33,460 bases of DNA from Acidobacteriota bacterium. GTDB lineage: Bacteria > Acidobacteriota > Polarisedimenticolia > CBDVAL01. Each line of letters begins with the position of its first letter. Position 1 is the first letter of the stretch. Of the stretch, positions 20-3,944 are shown piece by piece. A model generated the notes under the pieces. It was not told where the DNA came from. It worked only from the letters and a program-made list of their open reading frames with translations, and made no database searches. Position numbers and translations under genes: made by a program. The stretch spans positions 1 to 33,460 of the forward strand of contig JASFRI010000001.1 of assembly GCA_050115015.1 (NCBI GenBank). Direction: 5' to 3'.

Positions 20-39
20 GACTTTTCACGTGAAAAGTC
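20..39. repeat. Perfect 20-bp palindrome GACTTTTCACGTGAAAAGTC, copy 1 (operator-like)
   Basis: Read directly: the sequence equals its own reverse complement. It has an AT-rich core in a GC-rich context, and an identical copy lies 37 bp downstream. Confidence 0.9.
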
Positions 40-244: not shown

Positions 245-439
245 TCAGGGCTCCGCGGACCCGGGACCGGAGGCGGAAACCACGGCCCCGGAGCCGGCAT
301 CGAGCGGAGGCGGCTCGCCCCCCTCCACCGGCAGCCCCGCCGCCGTCCAGGCCTCCAGGCCGCCGTGCAGCGGACGGACCCGCCCGAACCCCCGGCTCCG
401 CAGCTTCAGCGCCGCCCGGGCGCTGGAGGCCTCGCCGGG
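245..439 (-). other. In-frame read-through extension of the DedA-rhodanese ORF. It encodes the missing C-terminal half of the rhodanese domain (candidate Sec recoding, or a pseudogene remnant).
   Basis: My own translation, in the same frame as 440-1237: PGEASSARAALKLRSRGFGRVRPLHGGLEAWTAAGLPVEGGEPPPLDAGSGAVVSASGPGSAEP, then TGA at 245-247. The motif GF..V..L.GG..AW..AGLPVE is the canonical rhodanese C-terminus. Confidence 0.6.
404..428 (-). promoter_or_regulatory. Candidate bacterial SECIS hairpin downstream of the in-frame UGA
   Basis: mRNA sense CUCCAGCGCC-CGGGC-GGCGCUGAAG forms a 10-bp stem with one C/A mismatch and a G-rich 5-nt loop. The stem starts after an 11-nt spacer (12th nt past the UGA). 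Confidence 0.4.
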
Positions 440-1237
440 TCAGGTGCAGTAGAGGGCGACCTCGCGATCCCGGGGCAGCTCCTCGATCCGCGCCTCCAGG
501 TCCTCGAACGGGATGTGAATCGCTCCCGGGATCCGGCGGGGGTCGCTCCGGAACTCCACCGCGTGCCGGACGTCCACCACCGCGATCGGCTCGCCGTCGC
601 GGAGTCGCCGGTGCAGCTCCACCGCGGGGATGCGCGCCATCCGCAACTCCCGGAGGAAACGGTGGCGGCGGTACCAGCGCCACAGCACGTATCCGGCCAG
701 CGTCGCCACGCCGATGCCGGCCAGCCCCAAGCCGAGACGCCCGATCCGGTCGAGGAGCCAGTCGATCTGATCGTGGAAGGCATGGCCGAGCCCGACGAAC
801 GTCACGACCCAGAGGGCCGACCCGAGGGTGTCGAAGATCAGGAACCGGGCCGTGGGCATCCGCAGCATTCCCGCCATCGGGACCGCCGCGACGCTCAGCG
901 GGGGCAGGAACTTCGCCAGCAGCAGCGATCGTGCCCCCATCCGGGCGAAGACCCGCTCGCTCCGCCGGACACAGGAGTCCGGCTCCAGGGAGATGCGGCA
1001 GATCCAGCGCATCACCATCCCCCCGCGGGCCCTCCCGATCCGGAACCAGACGACGTCCGCCAGCAGGCAGGCGGTGAGGGACAGGAGCAGGACCGCCCAG
1101 AGGCTCATCGAGCCCGACCGCACCAGCGCCCCCGCGCCGACCAGGATCGGGATCGCCGGCAGCGGCAGGCCGCCACGCTCGGCGAGAACGAGCAGGAAGA
1201 GGATGAGATAGCCGTACTGCTCGAGGAACGGGATCAT
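440..1237 (-). CDS. DedA/VTT-family membrane domain fused to a C-terminal rhodanese domain. This is the conventional ORF, which stops at TGA 440-442 inside the rhodanese active-site loop.
   Basis: The N-terminus MIPFLEQYGYLILFLLVLAERGGLPLP and several hydrophobic segments are typical of DedA. The C-terminal part IAVVDVRHAVEFRSDPRRIPGAIHIPFEDL...REVALYCT is the first half of a rhodanese fold and ends right after the catalytic-loop Cys. Confidence 0.85.
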   Translation of the reverse strand: MIPFLEQYGYLILFLLVLAERGGLPLPAIPILVGAGALVRSGSMSLWAVLLLSLTACLLADVVWFRIGRARGGMVMRWICRISLEPDSCVRRSERVFARMGARSLLLAKFLPPLSVAAVPMAGMLRMPTARFLIFDTLGSALWVVTFVGLGHAFHDQIDWLLDRIGRLGLGLAGIGVATLAGYVLWRWYRRHRFLRELRMARIPAVELHRRLRDGEPIAVVDVRHAVEFRSDPRRIPGAIHIPFEDLEARIEELPRDREVALYCT

Positions 1238-1353: not shown

Positions 1354-2034
1354 TCAGGGTTCCGGGGACCCGGTGGGATCCGAGGCCGTCCCCAGGACGA
1401 CCAGCGGCGAGGCCGACCGGCCGGGCAGCGGATGGCAGGCGATCTCGCGCAAGGCGCCGGGGAGCGCGGCGCGCACCGCGCGGGCCCCCGCCTGCCCGAG
1501 AAACAGCAGCAGCCGGCCTCCCGGGCGCAGGGCGCCGGCGATCGCCTCCAGGAGTCCGGCGCTCCCCGCCACCGCCCGCAGGGTCAGCACGTCGATCGGC
1601 GCGTGGCGGGCCACGTCCTCCGGCCGGCCCATCCGGTCGGACAGCACCCGGACGCGCTCCCCGAGGCCGGCCTCCCGCACGACCTCCTTCAGGAACGCCC
1701 GCTTGCGGGACGCCGGCTCCAGCAGCGTGCCGCGCAGGTCGGGACGCGCCATCAGGAGCGGTAGCCCGGGGAACCCACCGCCGGAGCCGACGTCGATCAG
1801 GTGCCGGATCGCCCCCCCGGCCGCCGGCAGGAAACGCAGCCCCTCGAGGGACTCCAGGAAGTGGCGTTCCAGGATCGCCGACCGCGAGCGCAGCGACGTC
1901 AGCTTCGCCGTGGGATTCCAGCGATCGAGGAGCTCCAGGTGGAGCGCCATGTGGCGAGCGGCCACGGGATCGAGGCGGAGTCCGCGCGCCGCGGCGAGCT
2001 CGAGGAGCCCTGCGGCGACCGCGGCGCGGCTCAC
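1354..2034 (-). CDS. rsmG: 16S rRNA (guanine527-N7)-methyltransferase RsmG (GidB)
   Basis: SAM motif IDVGSGGGFPGLPL and position directly after mnmG. I chose the GTG start at 2034 because it forms a GTGA overlap with the mnmG stop. The longer ORF reaching 2301 lies inside mnmG. Confidence 0.85.
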   Translation of the reverse strand: MSRAAVAAGLLELAAARGLRLDPVAARHMALHLELLDRWNPTAKLTSLRSRSAILERHFLESLEGLRFLPAAGGAIRHLIDVGSGGGFPGLPLLMARPDLRGTLLEPASRKRAFLKEVVREAGLGERVRVLSDRMGRPEDVARHAPIDVLTLRAVAGSAGLLEAIAGALRPGGRLLLFLGQAGARAVRAALPGALREIACHPLPGRSASPLVVLGTASDPTGSPEP

Positions 2035-3944
2035 CGTGGAACGTCCCCCTCCGCGGCGCGCTCGGCCCGGGCCAGATGGACGTCCAGCGCCGCCAGCGCC
2101 GCGGGGGTCAGTCCGGGGATCCTCGAGGCCTGCCCGAGCGTCCGTGGCCGGACCTCCTCGAGCTTCTCCACCGACTCCGCCGAGATCCCGCCCAGGTCCC
2201 GGTAGCGGAAGCCCGCCGGGATGGACCGGGCCTCCGCCGCCGCGAGCCGGCGGATCTCCCGCTCCTGGCGCTTCAGGTAGCCGCCGTACTTCGCGCGGCA
2301 CTCGACGTGGCCGCGTCCCGGGCCGTCCAGCCGGCGCAGCGGGCTGTCCTCACCCGGCGGCAGCAGGGCCAGGATGTCCTCGACCGCGACGCCGTCCCGG
2401 GCCAGGAGCCGCTCCGCCGGGATCGGCCTCTCCCCCAGCTCCAGGCCGGCCTCCTCCCGCGCGCGACGGCGCATGGAGGCCGAGGGGGCGATGGTCCGGC
2501 TCCCGAGCCACGCCAGGGCCCGGTCGGAGCGCTCCCGCCGGTCGCGGTAGCGCTCCCAGGCGGTGTCGTCCACCAGCCCGATCCGGCGCCCGTGGGGCGT
2601 CAGCCTGCGGTCGGCGCTGTCGACGTCCAGCAGGAGCCGGTGCTCGGCGCGGGACGTGAACATGCGGTAAGGCTCCGGGGCCCCCCGGGTGATCAGGTCA
2701 TCGACCATCACGCCGAGGTACCCCTCTTCCCGGCCCGGGATGAAGGAGGGGCACGCTCCGGCCCGGGCCGCCGCGTTGATCCCGGCCAGCAGCCCCAGGC
2801 CGGCAGCCTCCTCGTAGCCGGTGGTGCCGTCGATCTGGCCGGCGAGAAAGAGCCCGGGAATTTCCCGGGCCGCCAGGTCCGGGCCCAGGGACCGCGGATC
2901 GAAGAAGTCGTACTCGACGAGGTAGCCCGCGCGCAGCACCTCCGCGTCCTCCAGCCCCGGCAGGCTCCGGACGATGCGACGCTGGACCCGCTCGGGAAGG
3001 CTGGTGGACAGGCCGTTGACGTAGACGACGTCCGACGCGTATCCCTCCGGCTCCAGGATGAGGGGGTGGGAAGCACGATCCGGGAAGCGCACGACCTTGT
3101 CCTCGAGGGAGGGGCAGTAGCGGGGCCCCCGGGAGTCGATCGCGCCGTTGAACAGCGGCGAGAGGTGCAGGTGCTCACGGACCAGGTCGTGGGCGGCGGC
3201 GACGGTCCGCGCCCGGAAGCAGGCGATCTGCGGGCGGTCGATCGTCGCGGTGCCGAACGAGAAGGGGACCGGACGCGGGTCGCCGGACTGCGCCTCCAGG
3301 CGGTCGAGGTCGATCGTCCGGAGGCTGAGGCGCGGCGACGTCCCGGTCTTCAGGCGACCGCGCCGGAGCCCCAGGGCCGCCAGCGAGTCCGACAGGCGGG
3401 TCGACGCCGGTTCCCCGATACGCCCCCCCGCGCGGCTCCGGGTGCCGACGTGGAGGCGGCCGCGCAGGAACGTCCCCGAGGTGATCACCAGTGCCCGGCA
3501 GGCGATCGACCCGCCGTCCTCGAGGGCAATGCCCGCGACGCGGCGCCCCGTCCCCGGGCGGTGGACGAGCACCTCCGCCGCCAGCCCCTCGACGACCCGG
3601 AGACGCGGCTGTTCGGCGATGGCGCGCTGCATCCGGGAAGCGTAGACCGCCCGGTCCATCTGGGCGCGGGGCCCGCGCACCGCCGGGCCGCGGCTGCGGT
3701 TCAGCAGGCGGAACTGGATGCCGGTGTCGTCCGCGGCGCGCCCCATCTCCCCGCCGAGGGCGTCGATCTCGCGCACCAGGTGGCCCTTCCCCAGGCCGCC
3801 GATGGCCGGATTGCAGGACATCCGGGCGATGGCGTCCCGTCGCGGCGTGACCAGGACGGTGTCGCAGCCCAGCCGGGCCGCCGCCAGGGCCGCCTCGCAG
3901 CCGGCGTGCCCGCCCCCCACCACGACGACGTCGGCCCGCATCAC
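2031..3944 (-). CDS. mnmG: tRNA uridine-5-carboxymethylaminomethyl modification enzyme MnmG (GidA)
   Basis: 637 aa, with the FAD motif DVVVVGGGHAGCEAA and GidA-typical PRYCPSLEDK and GTTGYEEAA motifs. Confidence 0.95.
   Translation of the reverse strand: MMRADVVVVGGGHAGCEAALAAARLGCDTVLVTPRRDAIARMSCNPAIGGLGKGHLVREIDALGGEMGRAADDTGIQFRLLNRSRGPAVRGPRAQMDRAVYASRMQRAIAEQPRLRVVEGLAAEVLVHRPGTGRRVAGIALEDGGSIACRALVITSGTFLRGRLHVGTRSRAGGRIGEPASTRLSDSLAALGLRRGRLKTGTSPRLSLRTIDLDRLEAQSGDPRPVPFSFGTATIDRPQIACFRARTVAAAHDLVREHLHLSPLFNGAIDSRGPRYCPSLEDKVVRFPDRASHPLILEPEGYASDVVYVNGLSTSLPERVQRRIVRSLPGLEDAEVLRAGYLVEYDFFDPRSLGPDLAAREIPGLFLAGQIDGTTGYEEAAGLGLLAGINAAARAGACPSFIPGREEGYLGVMVDDLITRGAPEPYRMFTSRAEHRLLLDVDSADRRLTPHGRRIGLVDDTAWERYRDRRERSDRALAWLGSRTIAPSASMRRRAREEAGLELGERPIPAERLLARDGVAVEDILALLPPGEDSPLRRLDGPGRGHVECRAKYGGYLKRQEREIRRLAAAEARSIPAGFRYRDLGGISAESVEKLEEVRPRTLGQASRIPGLTPAALAALDVHLARAERAAEGDVPR

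Follow-up and report, generated by a model that had tools for sequence, protein, structure and literature searches.

Introduction

Among the prokaryotic selenoproteins in curated lists are five rhodanese-like forms; the third carries a CxU motif (U, selenocysteine, Sec) and is described by the NCBIfam model NF041203, 'rhodanese_LYCAU' (PMC13188914, PMC9312934). A UxU variant has been noted in a rhodanese-related sulfurtransferase selenoprotein family (PMC1976440). DedA membrane proteins fused to a rhodanese domain with cysteine in its active site have likewise been described, as an architecture whose function is unknown (PMC10127716; PA1209 in PMC12893004). Here we analyze a DedA-rhodanese gene on the minus strand of contig JASFRI010000001.1 from an Acidobacteriota bacterium, the entire 33,460-bp contig being referred to as the window. 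Judged from the sequence and its relatives, the gene very probably encodes a 330-residue selenoprotein in which an in-frame UGA, codon 266, is read as Sec. The system is not of a new kind: the protein represents a variant of the known CxU rhodanese selenoprotein that is fused to DedA. We found no description of a Sec-containing DedA fusion in the papers, curated lists or NCBIfam models that we examined, the architecture of the list example TKB26178.1 not being covered.

With NF041203, the window protein shares the fold, the LYC-x-U-P-N/x-E-A motif, in which Sec falls in the same column, and the in-frame hairpin right after the UGA. It differs in being a 330-residue protein with the rhodanese fused C-terminally to DedA, whereas the members of NF041203 are stand-alone proteins of ~126-150 residues (the profile has 126 positions) with an apparent signal peptide; the motif reads LYCTU-PGE in the window and LYCAU-PNE in the model. 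With the Cys-containing DedA-rhodanese fusions (COG0586 DedA plus PF00581, e.g. P. aeruginosa PA1209) it shares the two-domain architecture, the length and the YC-x-C-PNEA loop, but these have TGY where the window has TGA and lack the constraint on the hairpin.

Results and discussion

An in-frame UGA splits a complete rhodanese domain

The frame starts with an ATG at 1237-1235 on the minus strand and comprises 265 codons, ending in ...PRDREVALYCT, before a TGA at 440-442. Past this codon the same frame continues for 64 sense codons (PGEASSARAALKLRSRGFGRVRPLHGGLEAWTAAGLPVEGGEPPPLDAGSGAVVSASGPGSAEP; beginning PGEASSARAALKLRSRGFGRVRPLHGGLEAWTAAGLPVE) up to a TGA at 245-247, with no frameshift required. 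The full read-through coding sequence thus spans 245-1237 (minus strand; Met1-Pro330, Sec266, final stop TGA 245-247), as supported by its translation, the Pfam matches and the conservation of the frame in relatives. Retranslation reproduced the open reading frame (ORF) end, the 64-codon continuation, the coordinates, the sequence and the frame given in the original prediction. The NCBI-sourced record for the window contig holds the 265-residue ORF ended at the TGA, and in public protein records the window gene and its closest relatives appear as 265-283-residue 'DedA' or hypothetical proteins.

We ran Pfam on the read-through product with Cys put in at the TGA. The rhodanese domain (PF00581; residues 206-300, positions 338-622, minus strand), which the annotation splits at the UGA, scored 58.2 bits against a gathering cutoff of 22.2, covering profile positions 3-102 of 102 in a match that spans the TGA; PDB matches were 6mxv, 1yt8 and 3tp9. 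The part downstream of the TGA had been proposed to be the missing half of the rhodanese, and the Pfam domain is indeed complete across that codon. Upstream, residues 27-152 (782-1159, minus strand) form a DedA/VTT membrane domain (PF09335; 61.2 bits, cutoff 33.9), with sub-threshold NCBIfam matches to UptA/DedA models. Against the UptA models NF052604 and NF052605 the DedA part scored 55.8 and 51.7 bits, below the equivalog cutoffs of 250 and 300, and undecaprenyl-phosphate (UndP) flippase activity therefore cannot be assumed.

Around the TGA, the window protein reads ALYCT-U-PGEAS, where U is the TGA. The first residue of its C-x-U motif, Cys264, is encoded by a TGC at 446-448 (minus strand), and Y263 and C264 are invariant in 110 aligned upstream parts. 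The TGA itself (440-442, minus strand), the codon of the predicted Sec266, aligns with the second Cys of the YC-x-C-PNEA motif of homologues and, ungapped, with the catalytic Cys of solved rhodaneses.

Relatives keep either Cys or the same TGA, and an intact frame

More than 3,500 relatives were retrieved when the read-through product was used as the query of a protein search. The full-length ones (305-355 amino acids, 46-52% identity over more than 90% of the product), several of them named 'DedA family protein/thiosulfate sulfurtransferase GlpE' or 'membrane protein DedA.../rhodanese-related sulfurtransferase', read LYC[T/S/A]-C-PNE[A/V][S/T]SA and have Cys at the TGA position (P0006, P0008, P0035, P0047, P0082). 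A YC-x-C-P-N-E-A-S motif in homologues had previously been put forward, and this alignment bears it out. Eight further clusters (P0001-P0005, P0062, P0080, P0087) covered only 58-80% of the query at 54-90% identity, and all of them end in ...LYCT.

For seven of these eight short clusters we fetched 12 encoding contigs, which come from JGI, ENA and Logan assemblies of different samples. The stop codon after LYCT was TGA in all 12 and never TAA or TAG, a result that is informative because the protein search assumed no particular stop codon. Wherever a contig goes on, the frame downstream of the TGA is intact and reads P[N/S]EA[S/T]SAR[V/A]AL...RPL.GG..W to a later stop. The relatives at 54-90% identity thus carry TGA, not Cys, at this codon, ahead of an undecayed frame. 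We also scanned one genome per GTDB species with a DNA pattern for Y-C-x-TGA-P-x-E-A-x-x-A-R, TAYTGYNNNTGACCNNNNGARGCNNNNNNNGCNCG, in which most of the hairpin described below is left unconstrained. The scan found at least 120 genome loci with an in-frame YC-x-TGA-P-x-EA; in all the matches listed the motif lies in frame and the C-terminal half of the rhodanese comes after it.

A recent nonsense mutation of TGC or TGT to TGA (a pseudogene), or a sequencing or assembly error in the window contig, would take a single base change, and public gene calls do treat the ORF as a 265-residue protein. Against this stand the same TGA codon in relatives from independent samples and assemblers, its presence in at least 120 species-representative loci, a downstream frame that never decays where sequence exists, and a hairpin with Sec-specific constraint. 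In a nearest-neighbor test, 78 of 81 Sec forms were nearest to another Sec form, although this count is confounded, as the two sets come from different collections. The conserved TGA, the intact frame and the constrained hairpin therefore exclude a recent mutation or base-call error, to which we assign a negligible probability.

Alternatively, termination at the UGA might itself be functional, giving a 265-residue DedA protein with a crippled half-rhodanese tail, the downstream part being untranslated or made as a separate peptide. This is exactly what gene callers predict, and when selenium is scarce some termination at the Sec UGA is expected in any selenoprotein gene. Yet half a rhodanese fold would be unstable alone, the downstream part has no start codon of its own, and its 40-odd codons keep the family invariants (e.g. 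S, A, L, GG..W) in at least 120 lineages. Furthermore, the stop is always TGA in searches that were blind to the stop codon, the Cys forms are contiguous, and the hairpin would be left unexplained. We consider functional termination very unlikely.

One pair of contigs differs just downstream of the UGA: L007 and L006 encode an identical 283-residue upstream part (P0005) and diverge completely ~11 codons past the TGA (...SSARVALQLKKYGIRVYPLSGG... in one, ...SSARVALMLRNKGIHRVRPLQGG... in the other). This points either to chimerism in the short-read assembly or to a recombination event directly after the hairpin.

Constraint on a compact hairpin after the UGA is specific to the TGA forms

Bacterial selenocysteine insertion sequence (SECIS) elements are described by the bSECIS model as having a loop of 3-9 nucleotides (nt), an upper stem of 4-16 bp, a G in the first two loop positions (N-G-[G|U]-N-N), a UGA-to-loop distance of 16-37 nt and a minimum free energy of at most -7.5 kcal/mol (PMC13188914). 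The window has a SECIS-like hairpin inside the coding sequence at 407-425 (minus strand), with the stem C-AGCGCC / GGCGCU-G and the apical loop CGGGC at 414-418. When the T of the TGA is counted as position 1, it reads C18-AGCGCC(19-24)-CGGGC(25-29)-GGCGCU(30-35)-G36. The family hairpin, AGCGCC-CG[U/G]G[U/C]-GGCGCU, starts 15 nt and its loop 21 nt past the UGA. For the segment 404-428, folding gives a stem of 7 bp and a loop of 5 nt at -13.6 kcal/mol (z = -2.2; 4 of 200 shuffles as good). Every constraint of the model is thus matched (loop 5 nt, stem 4-7 bp, C-G-[U/G]-G-[U/C], 21 nt, -13.6 kcal/mol), in keeping with the earlier proposal that the hairpin, spacing included, is a bacterial SECIS. 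A search of Rfam gave no family matching the hairpin.

Like the E. coli fdhF-type SECIS and the bSECISearch consensus, the element is a stem-loop directly 3' of the UGA within the ORF, with a small apical loop containing G and then G/U and a spacing within 16-37 nt. Unlike these, it has a short stem of 4-7 bp, spans 17-19 nt overall, shows no evident bulged U, and has a sequence that is partly set by the encoded S-A-R-V/A-A-L helix.

As a matched control, metagenomes were scanned with the same pattern, with TGY in place of TGA, which yielded 109 usable Cys forms. At synonymous sites outside nt 19-35, the base frequencies of the TGA and TGY sets were alike; inside nt 19-35, synonymous sites were constrained only in the TGA set. 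Position 24, the third base of an Ala codon, was C in 92% of the TGA set versus 27% of the TGY set. At position 27, the third base of an Arg codon, the TGA set had U in 69%, G in 30% and C in 0%, versus C in 66% of the TGY set. Position 30 was G in 93% versus 35%, and position 34 was C in 92% versus 38%. The codon at 19-21 starts with AG (the Ser codon AGY) in 77% of the TGA set and with GC (Ala) in ~72% of the TGY set. All six core pairs were formed in 72 of 126 Sec genes compared to 4 of 109 Cys genes, and at least five were formed in 100 of 126 compared to 20 of 109.

Covariation was counted on the 7-bp helix (18-24 with 30-36) in a gapless alignment of 125 sequences (A1). The helix was paired in 84.9% of cells, versus at most 58% when the 3' arm was slid. 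Double changes were found at pairs 18-36 (CG 37, GC 34), 21-33 (CG 95, GC 12, UA 6) and 24-30 (CG 117, GC 7). The covariation score was 0.200, versus 0.076 +/- 0.010 in shuffles, none of 500 shuffles being as high. The original prediction had drawn a longer stem of 10 bp at 404-428; this segment folds and its upper 4-7 bp are conserved, whereas the lower three pairs are not: pairing at 15-39 and 16-38 is seen in ~42-46% of sequences, and the window has a mismatch at 17-37.

The UGA probably lies at the position of the rhodanese nucleophile

The original prediction had placed the TGA two residues after the catalytic Cys of the rhodanese. Ungapped alignment to PDB structures puts it instead on the catalytic Cys itself, with the other Cys at -2: the catalytic Cys of both 6mxv domains (YFYCGGGFRS, YLYCGSGFRS) and of 3iwh (IVCAGGVRSA) aligns with the TGA position. 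A count back from the conserved helix and the GG..W places U266 on C65 of E. coli GlpE, for which we take the spacing to be C65...G82 with GG at +26. Sec266 thus probably serves as the nucleophile at the start of the six-residue cradle U-P-G-E-A-S, and Cys264, at -2, is its likely resolving partner.

Solved single-domain rhodaneses (E. coli GlpE, 1gmx; 6mxv; 3iwh; Alr3790, 3ilm) have the same domain and a six-residue cradle that begins at the nucleophile. They use Cys together with an Arg or another basic loop residue (e.g. CGGGFRS), whereas the window loop combines U-P-G-E-A-S with a Cys at -2, an arrangement that points to C-x-U redox chemistry and not to classical thiosulfate:cyanide transfer. 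If the UxU selenoproteins mentioned above (PMC1976440) belong to the same family, both positions of the motif would be chemically active.

The probable Sec rhodanese is widespread and fused to several membrane proteins

The counts in this section refer to the matches listed from the pattern scan. The hosts among them are mostly metagenome-assembled genomes of Acidobacteriota (Thermoanaerobaculia, Bryobacterales, Acidoferrales, Blastocatellia, Pyrinomonadaceae) and Methylomirabilota/Rokubacteria; others belong to Burkholderiales and other Proteobacteria, Myxococcota, Nitrospirota, Chloroflexota and more phyla. Complete chromosomes with the TGA form include OZ255834.1 (Bryobacteraceae) and OY969786.1 (Acidobacteriaceae). 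We ran Pfam on 110 upstream parts, that is, the window and 109 loci with a complete upstream ORF. A VTT/DedA domain was found in 76 of them (~70%; the window and 75 loci), a Na+/H+ exchanger domain in 10 (L045, L065, L111 and seven others) and a trypsin-like protease domain in three (including L017), while ~18 were short stand-alone proteins. The DedA-fused Sec rhodanese is widespread in soil and groundwater bacteria. The exchanger and protease fusions were absent from the published selenoprotein lists that we examined.

The best NCBIfam match of the window protein was NF041203 at 74.1 bits, below the cutoff of 115, and the Cys-form DedA fusions scored 92-94 bits against it. Three stand-alone proteins found by the same pattern scan, L021, L114 and L032, scored 155, 183 and 118 bits and are true members of the family; they share the Sec column, the in-frame TGA motif and the hairpin alignment with the fused forms. 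The cutoff of NF041203 thus misses the fused forms.

The same three stand-alone proteins have N-terminal hydrophobic, signal-peptide-like segments (e.g. MKMAILVGTLLVLTAAFIVHA-EDV). The protease fusion L017 has an apparent signal peptide and a transmembrane helix. One Acidobacteriota metagenome-assembled genome, CAWBJU01, has two stand-alone copies (L043 and L100) on different contigs, with identical displayed sequence around the Sec codon.

In the window protein, a hydrophobic linker helix, LGLGLAGIGVATLAGYVLWRWY (~residues 167-189; 671-739, minus strand), can be read from the translation between the two domains and is followed by RRHRFLRELRMAR. By the positive-inside rule, the position of RRHRFLRELRMAR after the last hydrophobic helix suggests that the rhodanese domain probably faces the cytoplasm. 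The rhodanese of L017 would likewise be cytoplasmic. The known LYCAU selenoprotein, as represented by the stand-alone forms, seems to be exported, and the fused forms appear to be cytoplasmic.

Genomic context and the identity of the inserted amino acid

Acidobacteria figure in an earlier survey as one of the selenoprotein-bearing phyla (PMC1794560). By GyrB, the closest named relatives of the window (62-63% identity) are metagenome-assembled genomes of Candidatus Polarisedimenticolia and other Acidobacteriota. The window covers an origin-of-replication region, with rsmG, mnmG, mnmE, jag, yidC and yidD on the minus strand and dnaA, dnaN, recF, gyrB (confirmed) and gyrA (by position only), followed by metabolic genes, on the plus strand. 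The gene order mnmG-rsmG-DedA/rhodanese is also found in L001 and L002-L004. Most window ORFs with coding-like codon composition end in TGA, as the original prediction had noted of other genes there, and a reassigned genetic code was rejected on this ground.

Several observations weigh against the decoding of UGA266 as Sec. Neither selA, selB, selD nor tRNA-Sec was found in the window (0 tRNAs; no sel-like domains in the 20 ORFs scanned), and aragorn found no tRNA-Sec in 252 fetched loci. A tblastn search with an E. coli SelD sequence gave no match in the loci or the window, which is uninformative as the flanks are only ~8 kb. The organism is presumed to be Sec-competent, no sel genes having been found in the window or the fetched flanks. 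Single-sequence folding of the 48-71 nt after the UGA (70% GC) was no better than that of shuffled sequences; because this longer-context folding energy is not significant, the support for the hairpin is comparative, not thermodynamic. The ratio of nonsynonymous to synonymous substitution rates (dN/dS) downstream of the UGA was 0.48-0.85, only moderately below 1 and weak support at most, because the stretch is short and the hairpin limits synonymous change in it. Finally, two of five PDB profile alignments, those to 3tp9 and 6pfz, put Cys264 on the catalytic Cys by means of a two-residue gap.

A UGA that is read through need not be read as Sec. It might be decoded as Cys by a selC* tRNA-Cys with a SelB paralogue, or as Trp or Cys by hairpin-stimulated near-cognate read-through. 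Mukai et al. described selC* tRNA-Cys(UCA) with selB* in anaerobic lineages (some Deltaproteobacteria and Nitrospirae) and irregular, suppressor-like allo-tRNAs in Acidobacteria, and the inserted amino acid cannot be told from sequence data. However, selC* was reported from a limited range of anaerobes, alongside complete Sec systems (PMC5389517), whereas the TGA form is spread across many phyla. In addition, the closest curated family is annotated as a selenoprotein, and the hairpin matches the SelB-type SECIS consensus. Insertion of another amino acid is, in our judgment, improbable to a high degree, and we continue with the reading of UGA266 as Sec.

Two other features of the region concern the neighboring gene and the contig end. 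The longest rsmG ORF (1354-2301, minus strand, 315 amino acids) overlaps mnmG (2031-3944, minus strand) by ~270 nt; its Pfam match begins at residue 117, and the rsmG product of relatives has 218-222 amino acids. The real rsmG start is probably near 2022, the long N-terminal extension being an artefact of a GC-rich ORF. The contig end has an AT-rich patch, and there, ~120-220 bp past the true stop of the DedA-rhodanese gene, a 20-bp palindrome, GACTTTTCACGTGAAAAGTC, occurs in two perfect copies (window 20-39 and 57-76) 37 bp apart, with 0 expected by chance, followed by an 18-nt direct repeat ending in ...TTCGTATCAT (88-105 and 110-127). The close relative L002 has apparently the same palindrome downstream of its gene, as judged from translation. 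The two palindromes may serve a dimeric regulator as paired operators, or they may be an element resembling repetitive extragenic palindromic (REP) sequences.

Proposed mechanism

Under the preferred reading as Sec, the hairpin 15-33 nt downstream of UGA266 would act as a bacterial SECIS during translation and would recruit SelB carrying guanosine triphosphate (GTP) and Sec-tRNA(Sec). UGA266 would then be decoded as selenocysteine instead of stop, and translation would run on to the stop at 245-247. In the product, Sec would occupy the nucleophile position of the rhodanese loop and Cys264 would lie on the same face, two residues before it (C-x-U); the enzyme might cycle via a selenenylsulfide or a perselenide/persulfide-type intermediate. 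The rhodanese module might thus be a sulfur- or selenium-transfer or redox-sensing unit attached to a membrane transporter. Because the module is joined to three unrelated membrane proteins, an accessory sensing or substrate-handling role at the membrane, not tied to DedA transport, is suggested.

A broader and rather speculative proposal, which we think unlikely to hold as a whole, is that the C-x-U rhodanese with its embedded SECIS is a portable cassette that has been joined to DedA, Na+/H+ exchangers and a membrane-tethered protease. Its role in the DedA fusion would be to link selenium or sulfur transfer, or redox sensing, at the cytoplasmic membrane face to the transporter (e.g. with selenite or persulfide as cargo), and such fusions would make up an abundant unannotated class of membrane selenoenzymes in soil Acidobacteriota and Methylomirabilota. 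If true, the cassette would explain, at the level of mechanism, the long-standing and so far unexplained association of selenite sensitivity with DedA.

Significance

The finding is of moderate interest, mainly to specialists, and is useful for annotation and SECIS modelling. A catalytic half-domain and, on our reading, a selenocysteine are missing from the public records of the window gene and its closest relatives. The compact SECIS candidate (17-19 nt), with its matched Cys-form negative control, is usable to train bacterial SECIS predictors. For the lineages concerned, abundant and mostly uncultured in soil and groundwater, the Sec form would add a membrane-anchored rhodanese to their selenoproteomes. 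Because Sec would mark the residue that does the chemistry, it may also provide a handle on the unknown function of the DedA-rhodanese fusions.

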